A stretch of 64,000 bases of DNA from positions 1,248,001-1,312,000 of the forward strand of contig CAWETU010000001.1 in assembly GCA_963812135.1 (NCBI GenBank). Reading direction: 5' to 3'. Source of the DNA: Vulcanimicrobiota bacterium (GTDB lineage: Bacteria > Vulcanimicrobiota > Vulcanimicrobiia > Eremiobacterales > Eremiobacteraceae). The notes beneath the pieces were generated by a model. The model saw only the letters and a program-made list of their open reading frames with translations, was not told the DNA's origin and did no database searches. A program made the translations under genes and the position numbers. Each line of letters opens with the position of its first letter. Position 1 is the first letter of the stretch. Of the stretch, positions 40,755 through 59,384 are shown in pieces.

Positions 40755-40775
40755 ATCGGCAGAGGTGCAAAGACG

Positions 40776-42242: not shown

Positions 42243-42297
42243 CGAGTCCTATCGGCGTCGCCACTTGAAACCCGCACCGCGTAAAAGCGTTGCGGGT
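42243..42297 (+). repeat. Degenerate tRNA-Asp 3'-end copy plus terminator-like hairpin (att remnant upstream of the tRNA)
   Basis: CGAGTCCTATCGGCGTCGCCA-CTTGAAACCCGC...GCGGGT versus tRNA CGAGCCCGATCAGCGTCGCCA-CTTGAAACCCGC. Confidence 0.7.
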
Positions 42298-42451
42298 AAC
42301 CGATCATGGCGAGCGCGATTCCCCGCACCCGATCGCCTATTAGGCCCCACGGCCGATTGTTTGGCAGTCGATAGTCACAACAACGTCTATGTCCTTAGGA
42401 CTGACTCGACGAAACCCGGCAGCCCGTCGTTATGAGAAAGGCTTAGGCGTC

Positions 42452-42979: not shown

Positions 42980-43032
42980 CTGGGACGTAGGTAAGAATTC
43001 GGGGACCGCGAAAAGCCGCTACAATGGCGCGT

Positions 43033-43109
43033 GGCGCTGTAGCTCAGTTGGTTAGAGCGCCTGCCTGTCACGCAGGAGGTCGTCGGTTCGAGCCCGATCA
43101 GCGTCGCCA
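43033..43109 (+). tRNA. tRNA-Asp(GTC)
   Basis: GGCGCTG/CAGCGTC acceptor stem, AGCTCAGTTGGTTAGAGC, CCTGC-CTGTCAC-GCAGG, GGTTCGAG, encoded CCA; TACAAT -10 at 43020. Confidence 0.97.
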
Positions 43110-43113
43110 CTTG

Positions 43114-43146
43114 AAACCCGCGTAGCATAAGGCTTCGCGGGTTTTC
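43114..43146 (+). terminator. Intrinsic terminator-like hairpin after tRNA-Asp
   Basis: AAACCCGCG...CGCGGGTTTT. Confidence 0.7.
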
Positions 43147-43511
43147 TTATCCTCGGATGCAGATCAGCGGATTGGGTTTTGACAGCCTAATGACAGCCCA
43201 TAGTGCGTTCCGAGCTCGGAATGCCGCGGTTTTCAGCGCTTCGAGTCAGCACACAGCTTGGCGAGGGAGCGGAGGGCGGAGGGATCATCTTGTGACAAGA
43301 CCGCGTTTTGCGGCGCTGCTCGTCTTCGTTTAACGGGGCAAGCTTGAGGCGATTTCGTAGCTTCCTCCCGGGAATTCAGCCACGATGCCTAGCCGTCCGT
43401 GGAAACGTCGCGCGGTGCGCGCGATAGCAGAGTTCCGCGAGAAACTCGACGAACCGGTCCAAGCGTGCTCTCAAGGTAACCCATCACCCGTCTAACCAGG
43501 TCGTCACGTTT

Positions 43512-45950
43512 ATGGATAAAAACGTCAGAGCCAGCGACTTAGCCGAGACGAATCTTTCGCCTCGCGAGCGTGAAGTTGCCGAACTGGTCGCCCACGGCAA
43601 GTCGAATCGCGCGATCGCCGAGACGCTCTTTTTGAGCGAGCGTACCGTCGAGACTCACGTCAGTTCGATCCTCAGCAAATTGAGCTTCCACTCGCGCGTG
43701 GAGCTCTTGGCCGCAGTTCTTCAAGGCGACGCCAACGTCGATTCGCTGGCCGGTCGGCATCATGTGCCTTCGAACAATCTTCCGATTCAGCTCACGAGCC
43801 TTCTCGGACGCGAGCATGACATCGACGATGTCAAGTCGCTGCTTGGACAGCACAACCTCGTGACAGTGTCGGGCGCCGGCGGCGTCGGCAAGACACGGCT
43901 CGCGCTGCGAGTCGGGGCCGACGTTCTCGACCACTACAGCGACGGCGTGTGGTTTGTCGACCTTGCGCCCATCAGCGACCCGGAGTTGGTCTCAAGTGTC
44001 ATTGCTCGAGTGCTTGGCATGAGTCAGCAGGAGGATCGCAGAGTCGATCCATCGATTCCGCGATGGCTCAAGAATAAGCAGTTGCTGCTCATCCTGGACA
44101 ACTGCGAACATCTCCTCGGGGCGGTCGTGAGCATTGCAGAGAATATCGCGCGGTCGTGCACAAAGGTGCGAATGCTCGCCACCTCGCGACAGGCGCTTGA
44201 CATCGGCGGCGAGGTGGTGTATCGGTTGCCGTCACTGACCACTCCCGATAAGGCCGTGATCGTGCAGGCAGCCGAAGCGCCGCAATACGCCGCCATCGCG
44301 CTCTTCGTCGACCGAGCGAAGGCCGCCGACAATCACTTTGCGCTCACCGATGAAACTGCGCCAACCGTTGCCGACATCTGCCGCCGCTTAGACGGAATCC
44401 CGCTGGCGATCGAGCTAGCCGCGGCCCGCGTGAAGGTGCTCTCCATCCCAAATATCGCGCGCCGCTTGAACGACCGCTTTAAGGTCCTCACCGGCGGCAG
44501 CCGCACTGCGGTACCGAGACAGAAGACGCTCGGCGCGCTCATCGACTGGAGTTATGATCTGCTCGATGCCGACGAGCAAGCGCTCTTCAAGCGCCTTGGC
44601 ATCTTTGCCGGCGGTTTCAGCTTGGCTGCGGTGGCGGCAGTTCATGCTGGCGATGATCTCGACGAGACCGGCATCGTGGACCTGCTCTCATCGTTGACCG
44701 ACAAGTCGCTAGTCGTAGCGGATACGAGCGGGGAGCAGGAACGTTACCGGTTGCTTGAATCCACCCGCGCCTATGCTTTGGAAAAACTTGACGCTACCGG
44801 CGAACGCGAGCAACTCGCTCGCCGTCATAGCGACTACTTTCGCGCCGAAGCGGAGGCGGCTGACAAGCGATTCGGTACTGGCTCGACCGGCGCGTGGCTT
44901 ACGGTCGTCGAGCTCGAACTCGACAACTACCGCGCGACGCTTGAGTGGGCGCTCACAAACGGACATGATGTGGCGCTCGGTGGCGAGCTCGCCGGCGCGT
45001 TGGAACATCTCTGGTTTGACGGCGGACTCCTGGGCGAAGGGCGCTATTGGATCGGTCTTGCGCAAGCCGAACTTGACGAGGTCGAGCAACCTCGCGTGGC
45101 GGCCCGTCTTTGGCGTGCATCAGCCCGGCTGTCCGGTGGTAAGCGACGGCACGCGTGCGCGGAGCGGGCTCTGACGCTATATCAATCGATAGGAGATGAC
45201 GACGGGGCGACCTGGGCGCTGCTCGATCTTGTGCACGGTCTGCTCGACCTCGGCCGCATTGAGCAGGCTGATGAGGCGAACTCACGCGCGCTAACGGCCG
45301 CACGCGAGCAGGGAAATAAATGGGGCTTGGCGTTGTCCCTGCTTCACCAAGCTGGCATCGATGAATCTCGCGGTGATTTTGCGGCAGCGCGTTTGTCGTA
45401 TGTTCAGGCGCTTGAGACATTCGAAGCCATCGGAGACGAAGCTGGGATCGCGTGGGTTTTAGCGGACCACTCTGAGCTAGAATTCGAAGATGGTCGCGTT
45501 GAACAGGCGCTGCGCCTGGTGCGCGAGGCCATCGATATCGACGCGCGTGGCAAGAATGTATCGCACCTAGCTCTTGACCACAGCGAAAAAACGGTATTCT
45601 GCATTGCGCTCGGAGATCTCACAGCAGCGCGTGAAGCTGCACGCGAAGCACTGCGCTGGGCGCTGAAAGCTCACTCCGTGCTTCTCATGCTCGCGCTGCA
45701 GCACTTCGCGCTGCTTGGAGCGCTCGGCGGACAAATATCGAGTGCAGCACGCCTTATCGGATACGTCAACGCGAACTACGAGGAACTCGAGCTCCAGCGT
45801 GCGAGCATCGGGGCCGCCGGCATGTGGGGCCTCGAGAAGCTCATGGCAACGCTGCGCGAGCATCTCAGCGACGCCGAGATAGATGAACTCGCGGCCGAAG
45901 GCGCGGCTTGGTCCGAGGATCGCACGCTCGAAGCAGCGCTCGAGATGTGA
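43512..45950 (+). CDS. LuxR-type HTH + NB-ARC/STAND-like ATPase + TPR transcriptional regulator
   Basis: LSPREREVAELVAHGKSNRAIA, GAGGVGKTRLA, LDNCEH, LDGIPLAIELAA, RYRLLE, helical repeats. Confidence 0.9.
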   Translation: MDKNVRASDLAETNLSPREREVAELVAHGKSNRAIAETLFLSERTVETHVSSILSKLSFHSRVELLAAVLQGDANVDSLAGRHHVPSNNLPIQLTSLLGREHDIDDVKSLLGQHNLVTVSGAGGVGKTRLALRVGADVLDHYSDGVWFVDLAPISDPELVSSVIARVLGMSQQEDRRVDPSIPRWLKNKQLLLILDNCEHLLGAVVSIAENIARSCTKVRMLATSRQALDIGGEVVYRLPSLTTPDKAVIVQAAEAPQYAAIALFVDRAKAADNHFALTDETAPTVADICRRLDGIPLAIELAAARVKVLSIPNIARRLNDRFKVLTGGSRTAVPRQKTLGALIDWSYDLLDADEQALFKRLGIFAGGFSLAAVAAVHAGDDLDETGIVDLLSSLTDKSLVVADTSGEQERYRLLESTRAYALEKLDATGEREQLARRHSDYFRAEAEAADKRFGTGSTGAWLTVVELELDNYRATLEWALTNGHDVALGGELAGALEHLWFDGGLLGEGRYWIGLAQAELDEVEQPRVAARLWRASARLSGGKRRHACAERALTLYQSIGDDDGATWALLDLVHGLLDLGRIEQADEANSRALTAAREQGNKWGLALSLLHQAGIDESRGDFAAARLSYVQALETFEAIGDEAGIAWVLADHSELEFEDGRVEQALRLVREAIDIDARGKNVSHLALDHSEKTVFCIALGDLTAAREAAREALRWALKAHSVLLMLALQHFALLGALGGQISSAARLIGYVNANYEELELQRASIGAAGMWGLEKLMATLREHLSDAEIDELAAEGAAWSEDRTLEAALEM

Positions 45951-45953
45951 GTA

Positions 45954-46379
45954 CTAATGTTGGCGTCTGTCTATGGGCGCCCCGTGTGCGACTGCAAGCT
46001 GGAGCGGGGAGCCGGTGAGGTAGATCGCCGTCGCAACAAAGCCGCCCACGGGCCAGGCCACGACGCTAGTTGCCAAACGCGCCACAAGATACGCGGCGCC
46101 GATTGCAAGACCGACGGAGAACAGGTGTAATGCACCCCACACTACCGCGCGCGGTGGATGAACAATCGTGGTTTCATGCGATCCGGCGAAAGCCAGCAAC
46201 CCGACAGTCGCGTACGCCGCGACTGCGCCGAGCAGGAACAGCAGCGCTTCGCTCGCGCTCGGGACGCCGTGCGCGTGCGTCAGGACCGCTCCGGAAGTCC
46301 AAACCGTTAGCGTGTAGCCGTACGGAGCCGCGCTCGCGACCACCGTCGCGCGCACGGCAGATTTATAGCGCTCCCACAC
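45954..46379 (-). CDS. Hypothetical membrane protein
   Basis: Four hydrophobic helices, SAAPYGYTLTVW. Confidence 0.65.
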   Translation of the reverse strand: MWERYKSAVRATVVASAAPYGYTLTVWTSGAVLTHAHGVPSASEALLFLLGAVAAYATVGLLAFAGSHETTIVHPPRAVVWGALHLFSVGLAIGAAYLVARLATSVVAWPVGGFVATAIYLTGSPLQLAVAHGAPIDRRQH

Positions 46380-47328
46380 TACGACCGCGCTCCGTTGGCG
46401 TCGAGAACACTGCGCACATCAAACTGGCGTCGCAACACCCACGAAAACGTGGGCCGAAAGACCAGCCTTAAGACCAGGTTCTGCACCGCAACACCAAACG
46501 ATGTGCTCGGCAGGAACGATTTCGCGAACGAACGCGCGGCTTTTTGTTGCGACTCGACATATGGTCGGAGCTGCCGCTCATAACGTGCGAACGCTGCCTC
46601 CGGGGATGATTCCTCTCCTAGACACTGAGCGAGGATGTATGCTCCGCCCATGGCAAGGGATGCGCCTTGACCAGCGTCGGGCAGTCGCACGCATCGCCCA
46701 CGAGCGCCACGCGCCCTTCATGCCAGCGCGGGATTTGAATTTGCGCCACCGTGTCCATGAACACGTCGTCGCCGTCGGGCGCATCGTCGAGAAGGTCGCG
46801 CGTTATCCAGCCGACCCCCTCAAATTCGCGCTGCAACCGAGGTACGCGTTCCGCCCGAGGGACGTGCAAGCGATCGGTCGTCTCGAACATGAAGAAAGCA
46901 AACGCGCTACCCGGAGCATCACCCGCATAGAGTCCGACCATATGCCCAGGCTCGAGATACATCGTCCAGGTCGGCCCGAGCTGATATCGATCGGATACTC
47001 GGTAACTCGCTACGCAATATCCTAGGGGCCACAAAAACGCGTCCTCCCCGCCGAAGACAAGCGCGCGCACGCTTGAATGGATGCCGTCAGCGCCGACGAG
47101 CACGTCGCATGACAGTTGCGATCCGTCGTCGAGCTTTACGTGCACCCCTTTGTCGTCGGATTCGAGTGCGGTGATCGTCGTATCGAATCGGACGTCGCTC
47201 TGGTCCTTGACCGCGTCGAAGAGCACGCTTTCAAGCGTTTGATGCATGAGCGCCATGTAGCGTCCACCCAAGATCGCTCGGATGCGGTCGATGGATAGCG
47301 ACGCAATAGGCTTTCCATTCTTGCCGAC
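46379..47328 (-). pseudogene. FAD-dependent monooxygenase, 5'-truncated and frameshifted
   Basis: DVLVGADGIHSSVR, GRVALVGDA, GQGASLAM motifs present; N-terminal GxGxxG absent; frameshift near 46670. Confidence 0.8.
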
Positions 47329-47639
47329 GGGTGTTACCGCGGAGTTACTTGCAACGCTTGACCTTGGCCCTGAGATCGAGGGTATGGCAGGGCGCCAACT
47401 TCGAATGCGTATGGTGACTTTCGAGCCGGGAGGCGTCTTCGGACCGATTCACGACCATAAAGACAGACCAGGCATCGTCTACATACTGCAAGGAACGATC
47501 ACTGACCATCGAAACGGAGTCGCTACGGACTATGGGCGGGGAGTGGGCTGGCCCGAGGATAGGAGCACCACACACTCGCTCGAGAACAGAGGAACGATTC
47601 CGGCGGTGGAGATCTCGGTCGATATAGTCAGGCGGCACC
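47327..47639 (+). pseudogene. Cupin-domain protein fragment (native start missing; 3' end abuts the tRNA repeat)
   Basis: LRMRMVTFEPGG...HDHKDRPG...YILQG...H.LENRG; no stop before the repeat at 47640. Confidence 0.7.
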
Positions 47640-47718
47640 CCTGTCACGCAGGAGGTCGTCGGTTCGAGCCCGATCAGCGTCGCCACTTGAAACCCGCGTA
47701 GCATAAGGCTTCGCGGGT
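47640..47718 (+). repeat. att-like direct repeat R1: tRNA-Asp 3' half plus hairpin
   Basis: 79 bp identical to 43064-43142. Confidence 0.95.
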
Positions 47719-47841
47719 CTCTTCTTGATTTTGCCGTTTTAGGCTTGACACCAATTGGAGATTGGCGACCCACGGTGCCGACGTTACGTAGCCCCTATCG
47801 TCTGTCAATTGGGTACAAAAGGACCGCATAGAAGGCTTGCG

Positions 47842-48564
47842 CTAACCGGTCACCAACCGCGCAATGAGAAACGCCACGGTCGCGGCGACGCCGCCGATAA
47901 TGACCGTCTGAACCGCGCTGCGAAACCAGGTCACACCCGTCAATGCACCCTTCACTGCACCAAAAGTGAAAAGAGCGAGAAGTGTAACAAGTGATGAGAC
48001 GTATAGAGCCTGTCTTGAATCTTGGACCAACATATAGGGCAGTAGCGGCACCAATCCACCGACCACGTATGCGCCGCCTATGGTGAGCGCGCTCATCGGG
48101 GCCCTCTTTCGATCGGGCTCCTCGAGACCCAGCTCGAATCGCATCATGAAGTCGACCCAGCGTTGTCGGTCGGCGCTAAGACGGGTAGCGGCGTTGCGCG
48201 CATCCTCGTCGTTCAACCCGTACTCACGAAAAATGCTGACGACCTCGGCCTTTTCAGCCTGCGGCATCTCCTCGACTTCCCGTAGCTCGCGACGCTTCTC
48301 GCTTTCGAAATGCTCGACGTCGGTGCGGGCCGCGAGATAACCGCCAAGACCCATCGATATCCCGCCTGCCGCCAACTCCGCGATGCCGGCGGTTACAACG
48401 ATGTGCGAAGCGGCGATCGCCCCAGTGATCCCAGCAGCGAGCGCGAAGGGCACGGTCAGACCGTCCGACATGCCAATGACCACGTCGCGAACAGCTGCGG
48501 ATGCTTTGGAGTGTCTTTCTACGTGTTGGGGCTGCGGCGTGCTGCGCGGAATTCGTGCGCTCAT
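47842..48564 (-). CDS. VIT1/CCC1-family iron/manganese transporter
   Basis: RDVVIGMSDGL, AELAAGGISMGLGGYL, FMMRFELGL. Confidence 0.92.
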   Translation of the reverse strand: MSARIPRSTPQPQHVERHSKASAAVRDVVIGMSDGLTVPFALAAGITGAIAASHIVVTAGIAELAAGGISMGLGGYLAARTDVEHFESEKRRELREVEEMPQAEKAEVVSIFREYGLNDEDARNAATRLSADRQRWVDFMMRFELGLEEPDRKRAPMSALTIGGAYVVGGLVPLLPYMLVQDSRQALYVSSLVTLLALFTFGAVKGALTGVTWFRSAVQTVIIGGVAATVAFLIARLVTG

Positions 48565-48613
48565 ATCCTACGATGCCTCTGTTTCCTGTTCAGCGGGTTA
48601 CGCGATTCGGAGC

Positions 48614-49864
48614 TCAGTGGGCTTGGACGAACGCGAATCCTATCCAGGCCGCCAACAGCATGAGCACAAGCCCCGGGATGACCTGCAGCGCAAAGCGGGA
48701 GCCGCCGATCCAAGCGGCGATGATAGCTTTCGTCACAGCATTGGTGGTCAGGCCTGCAAGAATGGGAATCGCGGCCTCCGGCGCTGTGATCCTATCGGCG
48801 GCCACGAGAGAAGCCACGGACACGGCCGCGGAATGAGTATCGGCGAAGCCTGCGATCGCTGCGGCGGCGATCAGTCCTTTTTCGCCGAACCACGCGTTGA
48901 GTGCCGCCGAGACGACGACGACGACGGTGATCGTCGTTGCCAAAGCAAGCGCGGTCCAAAGATTGAACGGCCGCCCCAGTCGCTTCAGGTCGGGCGTTTC
49001 GTGGCGGATGCTCGTGATCGTCAGCAGCGTTCCGTAAGCGATTGCCGCTATGCCGGCGGCGATCAGCGGAACACGCAATTCGAGAAAGGTGGGCTCGCTA
49101 ACCGCGGCCAGCACTATCCCCATCAGCACAACGGTAGCAACACTTGAAAGGACGGCGCCTGCAACGGCTGACCGCGCGACCGAAGGTTCCTTTGCGGCTA
49201 GGGCGCCCATCGCGCCGATCGTGGCCGAGCTCGAGACAAAGCCTGACGCAAGACCGGCAAGAGGAAGCCCGAAACGGGTGCCAAGCAGCCGAACCGCGAC
49301 GTATCCAGCGGCGCTGATCGACATCATGAGGATGACGATCATCCAGACAGTGCGGGGATTTATCGAATCAAAGGGCCCAAGATATCGGTTCGGGACAAGG
49401 GGCAACACGACCAGAACCGCAGCTGCGAAGATGAGTCCGTCCGTCAGCTCTTCTTCGCTTAACACGTTGCGGACGAAGCGATGCAGACTTGTCCGAGCAG
49501 CCAATAGGATCGTCACCACAACGGCGACGCCTGCGGCGATCGCGGTATCCTGCTGGGCCAGCGCGCCTAAGAGAACGGTCAGCAAAAGCGCTGCTTCTGA
49601 TGTGACGCCGGGATCTCTGTCGTGACTTCGCAGATAGGCCATGGCACAGAGGCTAGCGGTTGCAAGCATCGTGACGGCTAGCAGTACATAGCCGCCCAGC
49701 ATGAAACTCACGCCCCCAAGGAGTGCCGCCACCGCGAACGTTCTGATCCCCGCCGCAGAGCGCCCCGGAGACTCCGTCTTTCGGCGCTCACGTTCGGCGC
49801 CGATCAGCAGGCCGATGGCGAGCGCGCTGCCCAGCCGGAATACCGGCTCGTCTGTGATCACCAC
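48614..49864 (-). CDS. MgtC/SapB-family membrane protein with DUF4010
   Basis: GLLIGAERE, AGIRTF, GVTSEAA, GFVSSSAT motifs. Confidence 0.88.
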   Translation of the reverse strand: MVITDEPVFRLGSALAIGLLIGAERERRKTESPGRSAAGIRTFAVAALLGGVSFMLGGYVLLAVTMLATASLCAMAYLRSHDRDPGVTSEAALLLTVLLGALAQQDTAIAAGVAVVVTILLAARTSLHRFVRNVLSEEELTDGLIFAAAVLVVLPLVPNRYLGPFDSINPRTVWMIVILMMSISAAGYVAVRLLGTRFGLPLAGLASGFVSSSATIGAMGALAAKEPSVARSAVAGAVLSSVATVVLMGIVLAAVSEPTFLELRVPLIAAGIAAIAYGTLLTITSIRHETPDLKRLGRPFNLWTALALATTITVVVVVSAALNAWFGEKGLIAAAAIAGFADTHSAAVSVASLVAADRITAPEAAIPILAGLTTNAVTKAIIAAWIGGSRFALQVIPGLVLMLLAAWIGFAFVQAH

Positions 49865-49982
49865 GTGCGATTCAACCTACAGGGCGATAAAGAGAACTGC
49901 GCCCACAGTTACGAAATTCTTGCCTCGTGAAAGCAGTGTGTTTCGGGGAGGGTCGGGGTCCCTGCCGTCTGAGGGGACCGAT

Positions 49983-51134
49983 ATGCAGGCGTCGTCGCTC
50001 GTGAGCGCGCGTTTGGGGACCGCGCTCCAGGTGCTCGCGGTGATCGTGCTCGCTGCAGTCATCCTCATCGGTTTCATCCACCTCCTTGGGCGGCTGCACA
50101 CTTTGACGACGATTGTCATCGGCGCTATATGCTTGTGCTACGTGATGGTGCCGGGGGTGCGGCGTCTCAACGAGCGTCTACCGATGTGGGCGTCCATAGC
50201 CATCGTCTATGCGGCGGTCATCGTGATCGTCGTCTCGTCGATCGCATTTATCGTGCCGGCGGTCAGTGGTGACGTCAAGCAGTTCGTCCAGGACGCGCCC
50301 GGGATCGCCCGCGACGCGCAAACCACGCTCTCCGATCCCACTAGTCCGATCGGGGCACGGCTGCCGCCTTTCATCAGAGATTATATCGCGGGACTGCCGA
50401 CGGAGTTCGTCACGCTCGTAGATCGCTACGGCGCCGACGTCGCGAAGAGCTTCTTCGGTGTGTTCATGTCCGCGATATCAATTCTTGCGCTCTTCGTGGT
50501 CGTCCCGATCGTGGCGATCTATCTCATGATCGAGAGCGACTCGATGCATCGTGGGATCGTCAGCTTGATCCCTCCCTCTGCAAGGCCCAAGGCGCTGGCG
50601 ATCCTCGATGGCATCAATGCAGTTCTCGGTGGATTCATCCGAGGCCAATTGCTCGTCGCGCTCATCGTCGGCACGTTGACCGCTGTCATGTTGACGCTTC
50701 TCCACGTTCGTTTCGCGATCTTGATCGGCCTTATTGCGGGCCTTCTCAATGTGATCCCCTATGTCGGCGCGTTCGCCGGTGCAGCGCCTGCAGTGCTGAT
50801 CGCGCTTATCACCAGTGGTCCGTTGAATACGCTCTTCGTGATCATCGGATTCGTCATCATCAATCAGCTCGAAGGACATCTCATCGCACCAAACGTCGTC
50901 GGTCCAAGCGTCGGCCTCTCGCCGCTGGCGGTGATCATCGCGTTGCTCGCGGGCGGCGAACTCTTCGGACTGCTGGGCCTGCTCGTCGCGGTGCCGGTCG
51001 CTGGCATCATAAAGGTGGTATTCGTCACCCTCGTTCCGCGATATGCGCCCCTCGAATCCGCGCCAGCGCCGCCGGCCAGCGGCAGCCCGCCACCGGGGGC
51101 AGTTACCGATGACGAGGCAGGCTGGTCTGGATGA
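49983..51134 (+). CDS. AI-2E family transporter
   Basis: GFIRGQL, IPYVG, QLEGHLIAP, GLSPL motifs; GAGGGG RBS before ATG 49983. Confidence 0.9.
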   Translation: MQASSLVSARLGTALQVLAVIVLAAVILIGFIHLLGRLHTLTTIVIGAICLCYVMVPGVRRLNERLPMWASIAIVYAAVIVIVVSSIAFIVPAVSGDVKQFVQDAPGIARDAQTTLSDPTSPIGARLPPFIRDYIAGLPTEFVTLVDRYGADVAKSFFGVFMSAISILALFVVVPIVAIYLMIESDSMHRGIVSLIPPSARPKALAILDGINAVLGGFIRGQLLVALIVGTLTAVMLTLLHVRFAILIGLIAGLLNVIPYVGAFAGAAPAVLIALITSGPLNTLFVIIGFVIINQLEGHLIAPNVVGPSVGLSPLAVIIALLAGGELFGLLGLLVAVPVAGIIKVVFVTLVPRYAPLESAPAPPASGSPPPGAVTDDEAGWSG

Positions 51135-51282
51135 AAGCGAACGCGCACCGCTTCTACGCTCACGTCAAGGTCAACGAGATATGCTTACGCGAGCTTATGG
51201 CGCTATGGACTGAGCGCTTGTCCGGTTGGCAGGAGCCAAGCTGAGGGCAAGATTCCCGCGTAGAATCTCTCTCCAAACCTTA

Positions 51283-51311
51283 TTGACCCGCATATCGATA
51301 CATGATACACT
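51283..51311 (+). promoter_or_regulatory. Sigma70-like promoter of higBA (leaderless)
   Basis: TTGACC-17 bp-TACACT ending 7 nt before GTG 51318. Confidence 0.65.
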
Positions 51312-51317
51312 TTCATC

Positions 51318-51605
51318 GTGGGGTGCTTCGCCGACCGCGGCACCGAGGACCTAGCAAACGGTTTCGATACTAAAGCTGCCCGGGCTTCATGCCCCAAGGC
51401 AATTTGGCCAGTTGCGAGACGGAAGCTTGACATGGTCATTTATGCGGGAGGTCTTGGAGATCTGCGTTCGCCTGGCAACCAACTCGAAGCTCTGAAAGGG
51501 GATCGACCCAGCCAACACAGCATTCGCGTGAACAAGCGGTATCGTGTATGCTTCGTTTGGTCCGATCAAGGAGCACAAGAAATTGAAATCGTCGACTATC
51601 ATTAG
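51318..51605 (+). CDS. higB: HigB (RelE/ParE superfamily) toxin
   Basis: FADRGTEDL, DLRSPGNQLEALKGDR, HSIRVN..YRVCFVW, EIVDYH terminus. Confidence 0.88.
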   Translation: MGCFADRGTEDLANGFDTKAARASCPKAIWPVARRKLDMVIYAGGLGDLRSPGNQLEALKGDRPSQHSIRVNKRYRVCFVWSDQGAQEIEIVDYH

Positions 51606-51921
51606 AACCGATATTTTCGTTCCATCTGCGCGGCGACCCACAAGCCCCGGCACCATGCTGGTCGAGGAGTTCATGAAGCCTCTGGGGCTCACGCAGCAGG
51701 CTCTCGCGGATGCCATGGCTGTTACGCGGGTCCGTGTCAATGAAATCGTCAACGGCCGGCGTGGTATTACGGCCGACACGGCGCTGCGACTGGCAAGGGC
51801 GCTGGGTACCTCCGTTGACCTCTGGCTCAGGCTTCAGCTCGCATGTGATCTCTTCGACGCACTTCACTCGCCAAAAGCGAAAGCCATCGCCAAGGTTCGA
51901 CGGATCATCCCAGCCGCTTGA
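51601..51921 (+). CDS. higA: HigA antitoxin (HTH Xre); start uncertain (ATT 51601 or ATG 51655)
   Basis: PTSPGTMLVEEFMKPLGLTQ..LA, NEIVNGRRGITADTALRL, WLRLQ. Confidence 0.88.
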   Translation: MRTDIFVPSARRPTSPGTMLVEEFMKPLGLTQQALADAMAVTRVRVNEIVNGRRGITADTALRLARALGTSVDLWLRLQLACDLFDALHSPKAKAIAKVRRIIPAA

Positions 51922-52081
51922 GCTTTGATCTGACGGCATGTGGCTTAATGTGGCTTAGCGCCCAAAGAAACGCGGGCGAATGTCGGCGAACAGCCGTTAA
52001 CAGTAGAGCGAGGATCCAGGGGCTGTGCCGAAATTCTTCGGCGGACGCTCGGGGAAACTGGAGGACAGGCCGAAAACGCCC

Positions 52082-52160
52082 GTCACGCAGGAGGTCGTCG
52101 GTTCGAGCCCGATCAGCGTCGTCACTTGAACCCGCATCGCGTAAAGCGTTGCGGGTTTTT
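52082..52160 (+). repeat. att-like direct repeat R2: tRNA-Asp 3' half plus hairpin
   Basis: GTCACGCAGG...CAGCGTCGTCA (1 mismatch) then AACCCGC...GCGGGTTTTTT. Confidence 0.92.
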
Positions 52161-52285
52161 TCTTGACTTTAGCGTTTCAGGCTTGACACCAATTTTGACA
52201 CCAAATGGAAGATTGGCGACCCTCGCTGCCGTCGTTACGTAGCTCCTGTCGTCCGGCATGGCTGAGCGCTCGAGCGTTGGCTGAG

Positions 52286-52323
52286 TCAGAATGTCGTTGG
52301 TTCGAGTCCAACTCGGGGAGCCA
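52286..52323 (+). repeat. 3' fragment of a different tRNA (Asn-like), att remnant
   Basis: T-arm GTTGG-TTCGAGT-CCAAC, 3' acceptor strand TCGGGGA, G discriminator, CCA; no D-arm upstream. Confidence 0.65.
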
Positions 52324-52325
52324 CT

Positions 52326-52369
52326 AAAAAAGTAAACCCTCTGCGCAAAGCGTGCGGGTCTACTTTTTT
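52326..52369. terminator. Bidirectional terminator-like hairpin
   Basis: AAAAAAGTAAACCC...GGGTCTACTTTTTT. Confidence 0.7.
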
Positions 52370-52381
52370 GCTAGACGTTGG

Positions 52382-53065
52382 TCATCTGGTGCCCATTGAT
52401 TGGTGCATCGGACAGTTCGCCATTGCGCCCATCATAGACCCACTCTTCCCGGCGCCGCTCATTAGCTGACCCATGTTGCCTTGCATCTGGCTCATGCTGC
52501 CGGGCATCTGGCCCATACGCATATGACCCATGCCGCCATGCATCTGGTCCATGCCGCTGGGCATCGGCGATGGCGCCATCATTGCATGTGCGCCGTGATC
52601 CTTCACTTGCGCGTCGAACCACTCGTGCACCGCGGAAACTAGTGAAGCATCCTGCGTCGTGAACGCGATCTGCGCGCCGGCCGGTAGCGCGCTATAGCGC
52701 ACCTCGAGGCGCGTTGCACTCGCGCTCAATGCCTGGAGACCGGGCATGTCGCTGCCGTGGATGTAAGCAGGATCCGAGAAATTACCTGCCGCGAAGAGCT
52801 TGCTCTCCTTTTCCAGGTGCGAGCGGACCAACGCGATGTCTGCGGTATCGCTCGGGTCCTTTACTACAATCGTCTCGACGCCACCGGACGACGTCTTGCG
52901 GAAGACGTGCATGGTCTTGTTCATATCGAACGGCATGACTTGCTTGCTATGCTGTTCGACCGTAGTGGATTGGCTATCGTCCGCGCGAACGGTGGCGCCG
53001 GCCAAGGCCGTGCCGATGATCAACGCGAGTGCCGCCAGGAGAATGGTCTTCTTATCGGTTTTCAT
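52382..53065 (-). CDS. Secreted hypothetical protein with Met/His-rich C-terminal tail (probable metal binding)
   Basis: Signal peptide, VMPFD...FSDPAYIHG.DMPGL...WFDAQVKDHG; tail MHGGMGHMRMGQMPGSMSQM. Confidence 0.8.
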   Translation of the reverse strand: MKTDKKTILLAALALIIGTALAGATVRADDSQSTTVEQHSKQVMPFDMNKTMHVFRKTSSGGVETIVVKDPSDTADIALVRSHLEKESKLFAAGNFSDPAYIHGSDMPGLQALSASATRLEVRYSALPAGAQIAFTTQDASLVSAVHEWFDAQVKDHGAHAMMAPSPMPSGMDQMHGGMGHMRMGQMPGSMSQMQGNMGQLMSGAGKSGSMMGAMANCPMHQSMGTR

Positions 53066-53513
53066 AGATCACCTTTACAAGAGTGTCAACCGCGCGCAGT
53101 ACCGACGTCCGGTCCGCGCGCGGTATGCCTTGGAATAGCCGTGAGAACATCCGGCGTCGAGAGTCGGCCAATTGCGCGGCCGCTTTACGCCCGGCGGGCG
53201 TGAGCCTCAGCAGAAGAGCCCGCCCATCGCCGTCGCTGCGGGCCCGTTTGATCCATCGGCGCCCGGCAAGAGCGGCGACGAGCCGGCTGACGGTGCTCTT
53301 CTCGAGCGCGAGTCGCCGCGAGAGCTGTGTCTGTGATAACGGTGCTTGCTGAGTGAGTTCGAGTAGCGCGTGCGCCTCCGCAACCGAGACCGGTCGCCCG
53401 CACGGCGTACGATCGGGCGCGTGCAGCCCGAGCGAGCGGACCAACCGGACCATCTGCCCCTGGAAGTCTGCTGCGGTTGCGCGGCCATTCTGGCCGCGGA
53501 GGATGGTGCGCAT
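53052..53513 (-). CDS. MarR-family transcriptional regulator
   Basis: TPCGRPVSVAEAHAL, LEKSTVSRLV, DGRALLLRLTPAG. Confidence 0.88.
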   Translation of the reverse strand: MRTILRGQNGRATAADFQGQMVRLVRSLGLHAPDRTPCGRPVSVAEAHALLELTQQAPLSQTQLSRRLALEKSTVSRLVAALAGRRWIKRARSDGDGRALLLRLTPAGRKAAAQLADSRRRMFSRLFQGIPRADRTSVLRAVDTLVKVIYENR

Positions 53514-53532
53514 TAGTTGTACCATACAACTA
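53514..53532. promoter_or_regulatory. Perfect inverted repeat, probable MarR operator
   Basis: TAGTTGTA-CCA-TACAACTA immediately upstream of ATG 53513. Confidence 0.7.
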
Positions 53533-53629
53533 TATCACCGGGGGTTCCTGCCGGCGAAACACTTGCCCACAGACCGGCCCTTGGATGGCGTTTCGGCCGG
53601 GGTGACTTGTCGTGTTACGGGGGGAGGAC

Positions 53630-53908
53630 ACCCTTGCGCCAAAGTCGTCTTGTGGGTCGATCAAAAGCAAGGTAGCAGAAGGACGTGTCGACCGGACCGT
53701 GGTGATTCGATTCTCGCTCGACGAAACGTTCGACATAGGCGAGGACACAGGCACGCCCGTCGTAGAGGACTACGCCGATAAGATGCCGTTTGCTTTCCAA
53801 GGCACGCTGCACAGGTTCGTCGTCGTGCTTCAACCGCAGAAGTTGAGCGAGGAAGACCAGCAACGCCTCCTGGCGGAACTAGCGCGCGCGTCAATGGCGG
53901 TTCACTGA
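53630..53908 (+). pseudogene. C-terminal fragment of an arylsulfatase-like protein
   Basis: VAEGRVDRT..RFSLDETFDIGEDTGTPVVEDY..KMPF recognised as a sulfatase C-terminus; rest of gene absent. Confidence 0.65.
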
Positions 53909-54142
53909 GAAGGCATCACGGGGGCTTTCATCACCATCAATGCGCCGGCTGCATTTCGGTAGGGCGGGTGGCTGCCTATCCCCGGTTTTTCTGACGCCAA
54001 AGTTGACACCAAATGGACGCTCCGTTGGCGCACACCGGCGCACATGCGGCAGACAAGAATATCCGGGTAACCCCTAATGAATGCCACGTCTGCGCATGTT
54101 GGCGCACATGCGCGCACGACCGCGCACATCGAGGGGAATTGT

Positions 54143-54224
54143 CTGTCAAACAGGAGGTCGTCGGTTCGAGCCCGATCAGCGTCGCCAGTCAAAAGCCCGT
54201 GAAGTGAAACTCCGCGGGCTTTCC
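54143..54224 (+). repeat. att-like direct repeat R3: tRNA-Asp 3' half plus hairpin
   Basis: CTGTCAaaCAGGAGG...CAGCGTCGCCA then AAAGCCCG...CGGGCTTT. Confidence 0.92.
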
Positions 54225-54269
54225 TTTCCTTGGCATCCCCGTCGCGTTTGACTAGTACCATATACAGTA

Positions 54270-54299
54270 TTGCAATCGTGGTATCATATATGATACTAT
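54270..54299 (+). promoter_or_regulatory. hicAB promoter with palindromic operator
   Basis: TTGCAA-18 bp-TACTAT overlapping the perfect palindrome GTATCATATATGATAC (54281-54296). Confidence 0.7.
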
Positions 54300-54306
54300 A
54301 GTTTTG

Positions 54307-54534
54307 GTGGAGAAACGGCTTCAGCGGCTGTACGACCAAGTAGCCAAGAATCGCAAGAATTGCCGCTATGAGGATCTGGAGCGGTTGTTGCTAGCTGCGG
54401 GGTTTACGCTCCGAAAAACGGGTGGATCGCACATGATCTTCAAGCGCGGTTCAAGCATACTGAGCGTGCCGAAGCGGAAACCCGTCAAAGAGCACTATGT
54501 CAGTGAGGCCCTCTCAATGATCGCTGAGACCTGA
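54307..54534 (+). CDS. hicA: HicA toxin
   Basis: LERLL.AAGF...GGSHMIF....LSVP...PVKEHYV; directly upstream of hicB. Confidence 0.85.
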   Translation: MEKRLQRLYDQVAKNRKNCRYEDLERLLLAAGFTLRKTGGSHMIFKRGSSILSVPKRKPVKEHYVSEALSMIAET

Positions 54535-54563
54535 AGAGGCCGCCCTAACTGGAGAAGTATGAT

Positions 54564-54941
54564 ATGGCAAACGTAACCGTGAAGCGAGACAAGATAAAAA
54601 AATATCTCGCGAAGCCCTATGCCCGGGAATTGATTCGGAACGAAGACGGGACCTGGTTTGCTCGAGTCATGGAGCTCAAGGGTTGCATGACTGAAGGCAA
54701 TACGAAAGAGGAGGCTCTCAAGAATCTTGATGATGCGATGAAAGGCTGGATTGATGTCGCAATTGCAGATGGCGAGTCCATACCCGAGCCACTCGAATCG
54801 CGCTCTTTTAGCGGCAAGTTTGTGGTTCGCGTTCCGCGGTCGCTGCATCGGAACTTGGCAAAGCATGCAGAGGTCGAGGGCGTAAGCTTGAATCAAGTCG
54901 TTGTGGCGGCCTTGGCCAGAGAAATCGGGCAGAAGAAGTAA
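54564..54941 (+). CDS. hicB: HicB antitoxin
   Basis: ELKGCMTEGNTKEEAL...IPEP followed by FSGKFVVRVPRSLH...EGVSLNQ. Confidence 0.9.
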   Translation: MANVTVKRDKIKKYLAKPYARELIRNEDGTWFARVMELKGCMTEGNTKEEALKNLDDAMKGWIDVAIADGESIPEPLESRSFSGKFVVRVPRSLHRNLAKHAEVEGVSLNQVVVAALAREIGQKK

Positions 54942-54956
54942 ACGGGCGGGATTGAA

Positions 54957-55081
54957 GCGTCCATAATCAGGATCGATTTGGTGCCATCGCCGGGCGTCGG
55001 GAACGCAAACAGATCAGTGTAGTCTAAGCGCGCATCCCCATGGGGGAACGTAACGTCGGGACCCGAGTAATGGTGGGACAT
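54957..55081 (-). pseudogene. N-terminal fragment of a DUF4331-like protein
   Basis: GGAGA RBS, MSHHYSGPD..FPHGDARLDYTDLFAFP; truncated after about 41 codons at the hicB boundary. Confidence 0.6.
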
Positions 55082-55309
55082 AGTTTATTTTCTCCTTCGC
55101 TGGCAGTATTCCCGATTTCAGCGCCGGACGGCCGATCAATGGTACTGCTGCATATGGCGATGTGCAAGGACACGTATGTTCGCATCGCGGCTGCTTTTCA
55201 CTACGCAGAAGTGTTTGAAGAGCGCCGACAGGTATTGCGCTTCAAGGTGGAGAGAGCGACGCTTTCTGACGTACAAGCGTAGGTTCCGAGTTCTAAGAGG
55301 AGGCGCACC

Positions 55310-56350
55310 ATGCACGAGGATCTCAACCTCGGCCGCCGCAAATTCTTTGGGAAGGCGGCGATGACCATCGTTGCCGCTGAGCTCGGCATGCTAAGCCCTG
55401 CGAGCGCGCAATTGAGCAGCGCTCCAGTAGCCGTGACGCCGGCGAGTCCGAAGAATACCTCGTTTGCGTCCATCAAACAAGTCAACGCCGGCGTTCTCAA
55501 CATCGGGTACGCTGAGGATGGACCGGCCGATGGGCAGCCAGTAATCCTGCTGCACGGATGGCCCTTTGACATCCACGCGTTCGTCGATGTCGCTCCGCTG
55601 CTGGCGAAGGCTGGGTTTCGCGTCATCGTTCCGTATCAACGTGGCTATGGCTCGACGACGTTCCTCTCTGCCGACACGTTTCGCAACGCTCAGCAGTCGA
55701 TTTGCGGCGAAGATGTCGTCAACTTGATGGACGCGCTCAAGATCAAGAAGGCGATCATCGGCGGTTTCGATATCGGATCGCGAACGGCGGCCGTCGTGGG
55801 GATCCTTTGGCCCGAGCGGGTCAAGGCGTTGGTGCTCGTTAGCGGCTATTTGATCGCCAACGTACCGGCAAACAAGCTACCGGCACCGCCGAGAGCCGAA
55901 TATGCCTTTTGGTACCAGTGGTATTTCTCGACGCAACGCGGGCTCTTAGGCTACACGCAGTACACCTACGATTTCAGCAAACTCGTCTGGACACTCCAGT
56001 CGCCGAAATGGCAGTTCAGCGATGCGACATACGATCTCACGGCGGCGTCGTTCAAGAATCCCGATCATGTGGCGATTGTGATACACAACTACCGTTGGCG
56101 CATCGGCCTCGCGGCAGGAGATCCGAAATACGACAGCTTGGAGAACAAGCTCTTCGCGGGTCCTGCCATCGATCTGCCCACAGTCACGATCGCAAGCGAT
56201 TTCGACGGCGCGAACGCGAGCGGCGCTGCATACCGGAGCAAGTTCACGGGCAAGTACTCGCACCGGATCCTCAGCGGCATCGGTCACGATGTGCCACAGG
56301 AGGCGCCGCAAGCGTTTTCGGACGCGATCGTCACCGTCGCCGGCTATTAG
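55310..56350 (+). CDS. Alpha/beta hydrolase (epoxide-hydrolase-like) with Tat-like signal
   Basis: GRRKFF signal, LLHGWP, GFDIGSR, GIGHDVPQEAP; GAGGAGG RBS. Confidence 0.9.
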   Translation: MHEDLNLGRRKFFGKAAMTIVAAELGMLSPASAQLSSAPVAVTPASPKNTSFASIKQVNAGVLNIGYAEDGPADGQPVILLHGWPFDIHAFVDVAPLLAKAGFRVIVPYQRGYGSTTFLSADTFRNAQQSICGEDVVNLMDALKIKKAIIGGFDIGSRTAAVVGILWPERVKALVLVSGYLIANVPANKLPAPPRAEYAFWYQWYFSTQRGLLGYTQYTYDFSKLVWTLQSPKWQFSDATYDLTAASFKNPDHVAIVIHNYRWRIGLAAGDPKYDSLENKLFAGPAIDLPTVTIASDFDGANASGAAYRSKFTGKYSHRILSGIGHDVPQEAPQAFSDAIVTVAGY

Positions 56351-56353
56351 GTG

Positions 56354-56531
56354 CCCCGCAACTGAAGTATGGGCGGTTACGGGAGATGAGCTGGCCGCGC
56401 ACTTGGCTCCACACTTTGTCGGATGGGCGCTTCCCGACTACTACGTTTTCGTGGAGTCGATCCCACACGCGTCCGTGGACAAGGCGGACAAGAAGGAACT
56501 CCGTGACGACTACAGGGATTGGCGGCCCTAA
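56354..56531 (+). pseudogene. C-terminal fragment of an acyl-CoA ligase (AMP-binding C-terminus)
   Basis: ELAAHLAPHF..WALPD.YVFVESIP..S..K.DKKELR pattern; rest of gene absent. Confidence 0.55.
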
Positions 56532-56547
56532 CTGAATCTCATTCGCC

Positions 56548-57147
56548 ATGAGGTGGCTGCCTATGCGTCGTCTGCTTTGTTTTACGTTGGTGGTTATCGC
56601 ACTTAACATCGCTTTGAAAGCCGCACAGGCGTCGGTGGATTTGGACCGTTGGTTCCTTGACGCCACCGCGTCTCAGGCCAAAGTGACGGCGACACAACTC
56701 GCGAAGCCAGACTTCTTGGGCGGCAGTTCGCTGTCAAGCAATTGCCATTTCCCTTATAATGGCAAGCTGCCGGCCTTGGCCGGCGTGTGGCAGCTGTTAA
56801 AGTACGACCGCAAGCATCAAATAGGCTTGGCATACGCGACGACGGACCAATGCAGCTCCGCCCTCTTCAAAGCTTCTCCGCCGCCTGCTTCCGTACCAGA
56901 TGGCGATCTGTCGCAATATGGCACCGCGCGAGGATTGAAGATCGGCAGCAGCTATGCCCAAGTGCTTTCTACGTACGGGCTGCCCGCCAGGCACGGGCAG
57001 CACTTCGTGGCTGCGTATAGCGCGAGCGTGCCCTCCACGGACCTCAAAAACAAGCCGATCAAGCTTCCCGAGATCATCACGTTGGTGATCGAGGACGGCA
57101 GAATTTCGTCGATAACGATCTACGTCGACGAAGGCGGCCTGTTCTAA
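56548..57147 (+). CDS. Secreted hypothetical protein
   Basis: Signal peptide; GLKIGSSYAQVLSTYG motif. Confidence 0.7.
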   Translation: MRWLPMRRLLCFTLVVIALNIALKAAQASVDLDRWFLDATASQAKVTATQLAKPDFLGGSSLSSNCHFPYNGKLPALAGVWQLLKYDRKHQIGLAYATTDQCSSALFKASPPPASVPDGDLSQYGTARGLKIGSSYAQVLSTYGLPARHGQHFVAAYSASVPSTDLKNKPIKLPEIITLVIEDGRISSITIYVDEGGLF

Positions 57148-57181
57148 GGATGGTTTCCAAGCTCGGTCCCGGCTGCATAGA

Positions 57182-59061
57182 TCAGTTGCACGCGGGCGCG
57201 AGATCGTCGTCGAGATGGTTGCCGTGCCCTTTCTTGCGGTCAGCGTCGACCGATCGTTGTGCAGCTCGCAAATCTGGGTCACGGTCGCGAAGTTGTAGGG
57301 TCCGAGGCTTGTATCGGAAGCCGAAGTGTATTGCCAGGGGATGACCGCCTTCACGAAGCCGGGGTCGAACGACCGGTGTGGTTGCGCTCCCGACCAAACC
57401 GAGTCAGTCAATTTGAGCAGCCATCCCTTGCCCAGCGCGAACGATCTGGCTTCAATCCACGGCGGATTAAGGATGGGATGATCCCAGCCTTCGTGCCACT
57501 TGCCGTCCTCCCACCCGTAATAGCCGGTCGCGCTGAATTGCACGTCTTTCTCGCGGACCTTGATGTATTGGAATGAGACCGTGTCGGGTTGGAGGTAGAC
57601 GTTCGCGTCGAAGCCGACGCTGGGAATGCCTTGGAAGTGGTGGAAGAAATCGGCATCGGGCGGCGGCGTGGCTTGATTGGCGGGGATGACCTCAAAGAGC
57701 GGATCCTGTGGCGTCAATATCTTGAAGGTGATCGTCGCGGTGGCATGTGTCACTGCGTCAACGGCCTCGATCGTCACCGCCGGTGCAGCTGTGATGCTCG
57801 CGGTGTACGTGACGGTCTTGCCACTGGTCGATGAGAGTTTCCCAAGACCGCTCGCATTCGACCACTGCGCGCTGTTGCCCGAGAAGGTCAGCGTCACCGG
57901 CTCGTTGACGCCGAGATCGTGGCGTGACCGATCAGCCGGCTCCGTCGCGACCGTCTCTGAAGTGATTTCTGCGCTCGGCGACGGTGAGGGCGTCGGCTGC
58001 GGCGGAGCGCCGCCAGGTTGCGGCGCTTGTGTCAGCGGCTGCACCGAATCGGAGCCCGGGTTGTTCACCACGTTCGAAAACGGAACGTTTGCACCGCCGG
58101 ACGGAGGACCGAGGCCGAACAGCCGCGTGCCGCTGACTTGTGAGGCCGCAAGAACGCGGACCTCGTACGTGCCGGGTGTGGCGAAGTTGCCGCTCGTCAC
58201 GAAGCGGACGTAGACGCGATCTGAGTAACGGCTCCACGGCGTGTCCCCCGAACCAGCGTGCTCCGGCGGCGCGTAGGGAATCAGTTCGCGTACCAGCTCG
58301 TTAAATGTCGGTGGAGGCTGCGCCATCTCCTCGCGTAGCCGCTGCATCTCCAGCACAGCCTGCCCGACCGAGCCGAGGCGGCCAAGCGCACCGTCGAAGG
58401 ACGGCATGCCTGGCACTTTCGACGCGACTTGATCGTACTGCGCGCGGATGCTCGTGTAGACATCCGCGTTGAGACGAGAGCGAAAATCCGGAATGACCCG
58501 ATCGACGATCGCGCGCTGGGCCTGCGGCATCGCGCTGTACGGAAGCCCCGCTTGGATGTCCCACGAGAGCACCTGCACTGCGCGATGATCGAGTTGATAC
58601 GATGGAATGCGCGAGTTGAGCGCTCGGAAGATGTCAGCCGCGGAGCCGCGCAGGGGCGCGACGAGGTAGCGGTGGCCGCTTGGGCTATGCGCGTGCGCCT
58701 TCATGCAAAAGACGTCAACGCTGAAGGCGTAGTCGCCTGGCGGCAGCGAGACCGTGCCGTCTGTTGAGGCGCGAAGCAGCGCGGTGATGTTGCGCGCGCT
58801 CGCTGCGGCGAACGGCAGTCCAGGCAGGTTGGCGGTTGGATACGCGTCTGATGGCGACACGACAATAGGAAGCTGATCGCCGATCGTCTTGCCGAAGGAC
58901 GAGAGCGCGGCGCGAACCGTGGCATCCTGCGCGGCTCCGGCCGGATTGGGAATCGGAATCGGGAACGCGACACTCGACGTGGCGGTTGCAAGCAGGATGA
59001 TGCAACCCGCGATCAACGCGTATGCCAATGCCGTCCGGAACCTCACCGCGAGCCGCCACAC
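57182..59061 (-). CDS. Large secreted hypothetical protein; true end probably TGA 57182 via a frameshift near 57200
   Basis: ORF 56797..59061 has a signal peptide, VFCMKAH motif and Pro linker; its last 350 bp overlap the convergent gene implausibly. Confidence 0.65.
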
Positions 59062-59222
59062 AGGTCAGCCGTTCTTTAGTGCAATCGCGTTTCCCACCCT
59101 GAAACGCGGAGATGCAACGCCGCGCCCTAAGTCGCCGTCCGCCGCAGTCCGTGCTCGTACGATCTCTCCAATGGCCCGTCCATGCCCGTGCGGGTGTGTG
59201 CGCTCAAGTGCAAATGGCGTGC

Positions 59223-59301
59223 GTCACGCAGGAGGTCGACGGTTCGAGCCCGATCAGCGTCGCCAGGTCTAGGAACCCGTGCAGCATGCTTCATGGGTTC
59301 C
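59223..59301 (+). repeat. att-like direct repeat R4: tRNA-Asp 3' half plus hairpin
   Basis: GTCACGCAGGAGGTCGaCGG...CGCCA then GGAACCCGTG...CATGGGTTCC. Confidence 0.92.
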
Positions 59302-59384
59302 TTCGTCTAACCAAGCCATTATAGCCCGCTTATTTCGGCGATCCCGCGAAATTGGATTAGTATCCTAGTAGAAAGGGGCATCGT

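Follow-up and report, generated by a model that had tools for sequence, protein, structure and literature searches.

How does a bacterium whose genome holds no integrase come to carry a row of small gene cassettes, each closed by a copy of the same half of a tRNA gene? The question is raised by positions 43033-59301 of a 64,000-nt stretch (the window) of the Vulcanimicrobiota contig CAWETU010000001.1 (assembly GCA_963812135.1, positions 1,248,001 to 1,312,000), where the 3' half of tRNA-Asp recurs downstream of the intact gene. The genome under study (G000) comprises 2.79 Mb in six contigs and is 98.4% complete. With a probability of about 0.7, we conclude that the array arose by tandem accretion at tRNA-Asp through tyrosine integrases acting in the anticodon loop, and that the integrase is gone and the array probably inert in this genome. 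Its islets are best read as similar to cis-mobilizable elements (CIMEs) or to tycheposons.

The array is built on one repeat family, recovered by a repeat search as five direct copies, namely the tRNA gene itself and copies at 47640, 52079, 54142 and 59220, with start-to-start distances of 4576, 4439, 2063 and 5078 bp:

43033-43109, + strand: intact tRNA-Asp(GTC), the attL-type end of the array (ARAGORN)
47640-47718, + strand: copy 2, tRNA 3' half with hairpin (tRNA part 47640-47685)
52079-52124, + strand: copy 3, tRNA 3' half with two mismatches
54142-54187, + strand: copy 4, tRNA 3' half with three mismatches
59220-59300, + strand: copy 5, tRNA 3' half with native terminator hairpin (tRNA part 59220-59265)

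Copy 2 matches positions 43064-43142 at 79 of 79 nt, hairpin included, and copies 3, 4 and 5 share 76, 70 and 73% identity over 79 nt. Within the 46-nt tRNA part, mismatches counted by eye number zero, two, three and four in copies 2 to 5, three of the four in copy 5 preceding GTCAC. Since the mismatches of the distal copies lie mostly before GTCAC, the similarity starts in the anticodon loop, as a preliminary description of this DNA had stated. A 25-mer spanning the T-arm and acceptor end gave five matches with at most one mismatch, against 0.00 expected in shuffled sequences, and no tRNA-Asp-half copy besides these five, all at the tRNA-Asp locus, was found in the 2.79-Mb genome. Folding placed a stable hairpin behind every copy (-17.6 to -24.3 kcal/mol, z from -2.5 to -5.2). 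It was used because a simple terminator scan was at chance level (18 terminators found, 14.7 expected) and missed the hairpins owing to its loop limit. The hairpin of copy 5 is homologous to that behind the last copy in a relative of the same genus (G005). ARAGORN, the repeat search and folding thus agree on direct repeats of the tRNA-Asp 3' half, each with its own hairpin, in line with the original observation. This layout is the one given by the assembled contigs; raw reads were not on hand, and Logan contigs cannot verify the joins at repeats. One further piece of the gene lies upstream, at 42243-42297 (+ strand), and consists of the last ~21 nt of tRNA-Asp with three mismatches, followed by a hairpin of -22.7 kcal/mol. 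It is located 735 bp before the intact tRNA, directly behind the stop codon of a 488-aa open reading frame (ORF).

The five copies bound four cassettes:

43110-47639: cassette 1, 4.5 kb
47686-52078: cassette 2, 4.4 kb
52125-54141: cassette 3, 2.0 kb, the sole window cassette with both type-A arms (described below)
54188-59219: cassette 4, composite, 5.0 kb

Pfam (28 ORFs) and PHROGs (20 ORFs) scans of these segments turned up neither an integrase nor a phage or conjugation gene, and the same scans of the window cassettes revealed no helicase, primase or capsid-type gene. A six-frame search of the genome for PF00589 found one tyrosine recombinase, a XerC/XerD-like gene at C1:1527056-1527571, ~236 kb away, and no serine recombinase (PF00239) was present in the genome. 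When the genome was searched by tblastn with two related integrases, the Xer-like gene alone was returned, and a loose-threshold tblastn of the integrases against the array (42001-60000) gave a best E value of 0.038, which was taken as noise. The statement that the segments lack integrase, phage and conjugation genes therefore stands on Pfam, PHROGs, PF00589 and tblastn searches alike, and the suggestion that a suitable recombinase might be encoded elsewhere in the genome led to the Xer-like gene and to no integrase. A 227-aa protein of cassette 3 was considered as a hidden recombinase and rejected: it has no Pfam or NCBIfam match, its Atlas leads are weak (<0.9) and it is absent from the other cassettes. 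It has 235 homologs at E <= 0.001, and the 120 homologs listed are mostly hypothetical proteins of 150-200 aa.

In the genus, the array is variable in content; in G005 and G006 as in this genome it is closed on its right by the same gene:

59385-60134, + strand: conserved right-flank gene with Cu_amine_oxidN1 and cupredoxin domains (Pfam)

This gene stands directly behind the last tRNA-half copy in G005 (93% DNA and 94.8% protein identity) and also behind the last copy in G006 (88.8% protein identity). Between tRNA and flank, the cargo is unrelated among G000, G005, G006 and G002, all of one genus. The array of G005 contains four cassettes with cargo unlike the window's (an integrase and a TPR protein; ricin-lectin/beta-lactamase-fold and Vgb-lyase-family proteins; ECF sigma factor and DUF899 proteins), that of G006 other cargo including a HEAT-repeat protein, while G002 has one 1.4-kb cassette whose far tRNA copy is decayed. 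The array is thus strain-variable between the tRNA and the conserved flank gene, and the repeats fit the att-type (attachment-site) scars of anticodon-loop insertions that had been proposed. To the left, window positions 28100-36274 are syntenic in G006 and G002. The 6.7 kb between this block and the tRNA (36275-43032) are extra here compared with G006 and G002, so that the tRNA has variable DNA on either side. They contain ordinary genes; no mobility gene was found in this stretch. A 35-mer search was positive in 23 of 41 genomes, with at least three copies in four of them (G000, G005, G006 and G022). This tally and those over 32 and 301 genomes given below include the unpublished genomes G010, G016, G176, G182, G190, G219, G268 and G296, none of which supplies a locus described here.

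Integrase genes do occur in the arrays of relatives, in damaged form. In G005, the cassette nearest the tRNA contains the gene of a 338-aa tyrosine integrase, which faces the tRNA and matches PF00589 (3e-15) and a SAM-like domain. The second cassette of G006 keeps only the C-terminal 164 aa of this integrase, and over 653 bp the DNA of the two genes shares 97% identity. Their alignment has a 1-base gap, which ends the G005 frame early and could be an assembly error; full-length relatives have open frames of ~390-420 aa. In the metagenome contig L092, a 250-aa ORF with the catalytic domain only is located just before a type-A right arm. The integrase family is present in 150 of 301 class genomes at E <= 1e-20, including two of the six genomes of this genus. 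A tRNA gene lies within 1.5 kb of the integrase in 19 of 30 fetched loci, and in all four loci compared (G005, G012, G189 and G052) the 3' ends of the tRNA and of the integrase gene face each other. Integrase remnants, the sign by which ordinary decayed islands were to be recognized, were thus found broken in the relatives' arrays and not in the window segments. The integrase-bearing element ranks first in the G005 array and second in that of G006. The proposed polarity of the array, with the newest cassettes next to the tRNA, is plausible and draws on this one difference in order and on the mismatch gradient among the copies.

The ends of the cassettes carry conserved DNA of their own. A right arm of ~165 bp, designated type A, precedes the tRNA half at 11 distinct places: in window cassette 3, G005 cassettes 1-3, G006 cassette 1, contig C35 of G006, and the metagenome contigs L091 (two), L092 (two) and L093 (one); L088, L089 and L090 duplicate G006 or L092. 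The arm is composed of near-invariant blocks (TTGACACCAAAT twice, several GGCGCAC and ACGTCTGCGC) between variable spacers. By BLAST it was detected in three of 32 family genomes, all of this genus, and the tandem motif of the left arm in three of 301 class genomes, again all of this genus. A small protein encoded by the right arm was considered and rejected, since matches occur in several frames and on both strands, indicating conservation at the DNA level. A second right-arm type (B) with tandem GTGGCTTA ends window cassette 2, where the motif occurs at 51940 and 51950, and the G002 cassette. The left arms follow a common plan of tRNA half, terminator hairpin and, 55-90 nt further, a tandem 8-12-bp motif that varies by cassette:

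TTGACACCAAT, twice: window cassette 3, G006 cassette 1, L091 and L093; window cassette 2 has a single copy
GTTGGCCAATG, twice: G005 cassette 1, G006 cassette 2 and L092
TGACAGCC, twice: window cassette 1
TAGTGACC, twice: L092

In the window, the left arm of cassette 1 consists of the hairpin and TGACAGCC at 43180 and 43191, and cassette 2 has a type-A left arm with a single TTGACACCAATT at 47745. Cassette 3 has a left arm at 52125-52260, with TTGACACCAAWT at 52183 and 52195, and a right arm at ~53985-54141, which includes GCGCAC repeats and a copy of the motif at 54003. No conserved right arm was recognised in cassette 1 or cassette 4. In the whole genome TTGACACCAAWT has four copies, all in the array and all on the + strand, against 0.17 expected in the window. 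We regard the tandem motifs as putative arm-type integrase sites. A scan of genome contigs for the tandem motif gave eight loci, seven of them in low-GC genomes (28-44% GC), which were taken as chance matches. A Ktedonobacteraceae metagenome-assembled genome (DASRHT010000050.1, L084:4782-6461) carries a tmRNA 3' end followed by a hairpin, the same tandem motif (TTGACACCAAATTTGACACCAAAT) and an intact 388-aa tyrosine integrase, 40% identical to that of G005. This locus has the left-arm design of the window type-A cassettes at another target gene.

We propose that each incoming circle would have carried an attP in which a copy of the tRNA 3' half stood between a right (P) arm and a left (P') arm; the P' arm would have been made up of the terminator hairpin and the tandem 8-12-bp arm-type motif. 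Insertion in the anticodon loop would rebuild the tRNA, and the displaced 3' half would end up at the far end of the islet. The enzymes would be tyrosine integrases of the family found broken in the same-genus arrays, and the present array would represent a single non-autonomous cassette in good condition (cassette 3, which has both arms) among decayed or fused units (cassettes 1, 2 and 4). The array is most likely inert because no such integrase is left in the genome. Of this account, the repeats, the arms, the variability among strains and the relatives' broken integrases are observed directly, whereas the site of crossover, integrase binding at the tandem motifs, the order in which the cassettes arrived and their inactivity today are deduced.

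Duplications of this kind are found at other tRNA genes of the same genome. In five more, the 3' part is present twice, and the additional copy begins in the anticodon loop:

C1:151005/157770: tRNA-Ala(cgc), copies 6.8 kb apart
C1:1240328/1237404: tRNA-Val(gac), copies 2.9 kb apart; a hairpin and then tandem ATGCTGACCA
C1:1799774/1792859: tRNA-Pro(ggg), copies 6.9 kb apart
C1:107732/107165: tRNA-Glu(ttc), copies ~0.5 kb apart
C1:1113420/1113866: tRNA-Glu(ctc), copies ~0.5 kb apart (0.45)

Thus, integrase-less tRNA islets are a feature of the whole genome and not of tRNA-Asp alone.

The cargo of the four window cassettes is as follows:

Cassette 1, 43512-45950, + strand: LuxR-HTH/NB-ARC/TPR regulator (Pfam)
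Cassette 1, 46618-47271, - strand: FAD-monooxygenase fragment (Pfam)
Cassette 1, 47282-47701, + strand: cupin (Pfam), whose frame enters tRNA copy 2 and ends there
Cassette 2, 47842-48564, - strand: VIT1 (Pfam)
Cassette 2, 48614-49864, - strand: MgtC/DUF4010 (Pfam)
Cassette 2, 49701-51134, + strand: AI-2E-family transporter (Pfam)
Cassette 2: 167-aa unknown protein
Cassette 3, 52382-53065, - strand: 227-aa protein of a widespread unnamed family
Cassette 3, 53052-53525, - strand: MarR (Pfam)
Cassette 4, 54304-54534, + strand: HicA
Cassette 4, 54564-54941, + strand: HicB
Cassette 4, 55310-56350, + strand: alpha/beta hydrolase; unknown ORFs are also present
Cassette 4, 56797-59061, - strand: 754-aa ORF with a weak PKD match

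Together, HicA and HicB form a module (window 54101-54942) that recurs as a free-standing 0.9-kb cassette in the metagenome contig L093, with 89.8% identity over 850 nt and tRNA halves 944 bp apart; therefore, window cassette 4 is a fusion. In cassette 1, the 217-aa ORF covers only positions 93-165 of the 349 of the FAD_binding_3 profile and is probably a gene fragment; together with the cupin ending in copy 2, it is a sign of decay at the right edge of the cassette. Cassette 3 contains a 38-nt 3' fragment of tRNA-Asn(GTT) (52286-52323), identical to the tRNA-Asn gene at C1:2007588-2007663. This fragment has its own hairpin and sits just behind the type-A left arm, and it may be a trace left by a previous residence at tRNA-Asp, or else att DNA that was captured. 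About 3 kb past the array (62557-63198), a 213-aa ORF whose only domain is a Cas12f1-like TNB domain (PF07282, 4.7e-08) is probably a TnpB remnant.

Public sequencing runs, searched as Logan contigs, contained no convincing circle or empty site. The locus is best represented in X1, a soil metagenome with a depth of ~5x that is possibly the source sample. In one 538-nt contig of X1, position 57159 is followed by 32 letters similar to 57172-57203 and then by position 59284, and the breakpoints are not at att sites. This contig appears to come from a co-occurring relative that lacks the last tRNA copy and the segment with the 754-aa ORF, and it was not counted as excision. The same decision was taken for the joints 43145/6 to 57193 and 52163 to 57193 (X2) and for the joint 54941 to 54100 (X4), which goes back; all these joints have short sides or derive from relatives. 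Among viral contigs, the tRNA half had 0 matches and the G005 integrase none; the L092 integrase had only relatives of 30-39% identity and one 18-residue match, so that no helper was found. Fourteen viral motif matches (L102-L115, IMG/VR, one 38%-GC phage lineage) were taken as coincidence. These contigs contain the same 23-nt tandem motif, located ~200 nt from a contig end in 13 of 14, and 11 of the 14 are 79-141 kb long; no tRNA-like sequence was found in the ~110 nt round the motif.

Accretion followed by loss of the integrase has several points against it. Only one of the four window cassettes has both conserved arms; cassettes 1 and 4 are without a recognisable right arm, and an integrase origin is deduced for them solely from the tRNA repeat and the layout of the left arm. 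That copies 1 and 2 are identical over 79 bp, past the tRNA and into the hairpin, could reflect gene conversion rather than recent insertion. The upstream tRNA end at 42243 and the 6.7 kb of extra DNA on the left are unexplained by simple accretion on the 3' side. The three integrases located in such arrays all look broken, the searches found no intact cognate integrase anywhere, and the viral contigs yielded no helper. Finally, binding of an integrase to the tandem motifs is a prediction.

The alternative that survives best regards the type-A units as a distinct class of integrase-less cassettes of 0.9-5 kb, each with a complete attP and moved in trans by a tRNA-Asp-specific tyrosine integrase. 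Their attP would comprise the ~165-bp right arm, the tRNA-Asp half and the left arm of hairpin and tandem motif. In that case, tRNA genes of this soil lineage would act as arrays for gene capture resembling integrons. Six of the seven complete cassettes with a type-A right arm lack an integrase-like frame and one has a broken integrase, and among 588 frames from 25 segments only integrase pieces and HicAB are shared. The earlier idea of small non-autonomous units is borne out in that these six, cassette 3 among them, keep conserved arms on both sides and have no recombinase. As a class of its own served in trans, however, the type-A unit is a tentative proposal with the odds clearly against it.

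Next in order is the view that the cassettes are pure fossils, each once autonomous with its own integrase since deleted and never moved by any other enzyme, and that the arms are slowly decaying leftovers. The three integrase remnants at different stages of loss agree with it, as do the truncated FAD-monooxygenase and the cupin frame running into the repeat in cassette 1, the composite cassette 4, the decayed attR in G002 and the X1 contig, which has 32 letters in place of 57160-59283 and breakpoints off the att sites. However, the deletions would have to spare arms of ~165 bp and ~130 bp in at least six cassettes with unrelated cargo, and the conservation of the arms is blockwise and not uniform. 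We consider this explanation unlikely.

Less probable still is an active integron-like capture platform, as suggested in the preliminary description, in which non-autonomous cassettes are excised, shuffled and inserted by a recombinase acting in trans, encoded by a visiting element or unrecognised. Like integrons, the locus presents a row of small exchangeable gene units at a fixed site with a repeated recombination site between them. The integrase-free type-A cassettes and the lack of any other gene common to the 588 frames suit this explanation, as do arms conserved in blocks around unrelated cargo, cassettes down to 0.9-1.6 kb with HicAB independent elsewhere, and the different rank of the integrase element in G005 and G006. 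The duplicated 3' parts of five other tRNA genes in an integrase-free genome and the copy of the tRNA-Asn 3' part inside cassette 3 point the same way. On the other hand, the Xer-like gene is the only recombinase of a 98.4%-complete genome, no circle, empty site or viral helper was found, the broken integrases of the relatives fit the decay of autonomous elements, and most window cassettes are without one or both arms. Unlike integrons, the locus has no intI, attI or Pc, and its repeat is a tRNA half with duplex-type arms and not an attC hairpin. The array genes occupy both strands, which is at odds with a common promoter of the integron type. Taken together, these observations make such a platform improbable.

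That the host Xer recombinase, or homologous recombination between the 46-79-bp repeats, makes and reshuffles the array is highly improbable: the only tyrosine recombinase of the genome is indeed XerC/D-like, and RecA could delete cassette 1 through the perfect 79-bp repeat on its two sides, but the relatives' arrays have dedicated integrase genes beside the arms, the repeated site is a tRNA half that carries long arms of the integrase-attP type and not a 28-bp dif-like XerC/XerD site as in Xer-dependent modules of the dif/pdif or IMEX type (no dif search was made), and homologous recombination can delete cassettes but not import new ones.

The proposed accretion at tRNA-Asp by anticodon-loop integrases also places the locus among known systems. 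In Islander/TIGER islands, tyrosine integrases insert in tRNA and tmRNA genes, and the sublocation classes that Williams defined in 2002 are said to include an anticodon-loop crossover of tyrosine integrases at these genes. Like such islands, the array has an intact tRNA as one of its ends, and each unit lies between direct repeats of the tRNA 3' part; the integrase gene of the relatives faces the tRNA 3' end; and the content is variable next to a conserved right flank (G005 and G006), the left flank being conserved only from 36274 leftwards. It differs from them in its multi-unit structure and in the absence of an integrase from the window and the genome, with only broken ones in relatives.

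CIMEs are characterized as att-bounded elements without integration or transfer genes that are stacked by site-specific integration (PMC5704250). In the ICESt1/ICESt3 family of Streptococcus thermophilus, tandem structures form beside a resident decayed element at the 3' end of the target gene (PMC5704250). Like CIMEs, all four window cassettes are bounded by tRNA-half copies and have no recombinase, cassette 3 alone keeping both arms. In contrast to CIMEs, neither a conjugative element nor a relaxase was seen in the window or in the arrays of relatives. The units, of 0.9-5.4 kb, are far smaller and target the anticodon loop of a tRNA; as many as four of them follow one another, and a single core is common to several arm types. 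For the tycheposon islands of Prochlorococcus, the published account describes elements flanked by partial tRNAs, in which new integrations drive older ones outwards, with fragmented integrases and extra partial tRNAs, in small-genome hosts with few other mobile elements (10.1101/2020.12.28.424599). The array resembles them in its partial-tRNA flanks and tandem accretion at an island tRNA, but no recombinase, helicase, primase or other hallmark gene was seen in its cassettes, and its host belongs to a soil lineage.

The locus fits a known kind of gene-gain hotspot, and a small-genome soil bacterium without an integrase of its own still carries at a tRNA gene a strain-variable stack of accessory genes, which encode a toxin-antitoxin pair as well as regulators, hydrolases and transporters for metals. 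Bait for the missing integrase is available in the conserved arms and tandem motifs. If the cassettes do move in trans, tRNA-anchored arrays would constitute a widespread gene-capture system parallel to integrons; if they do not, this array would offer a clean case of tRNA islands decaying into fixed accessory DNA.

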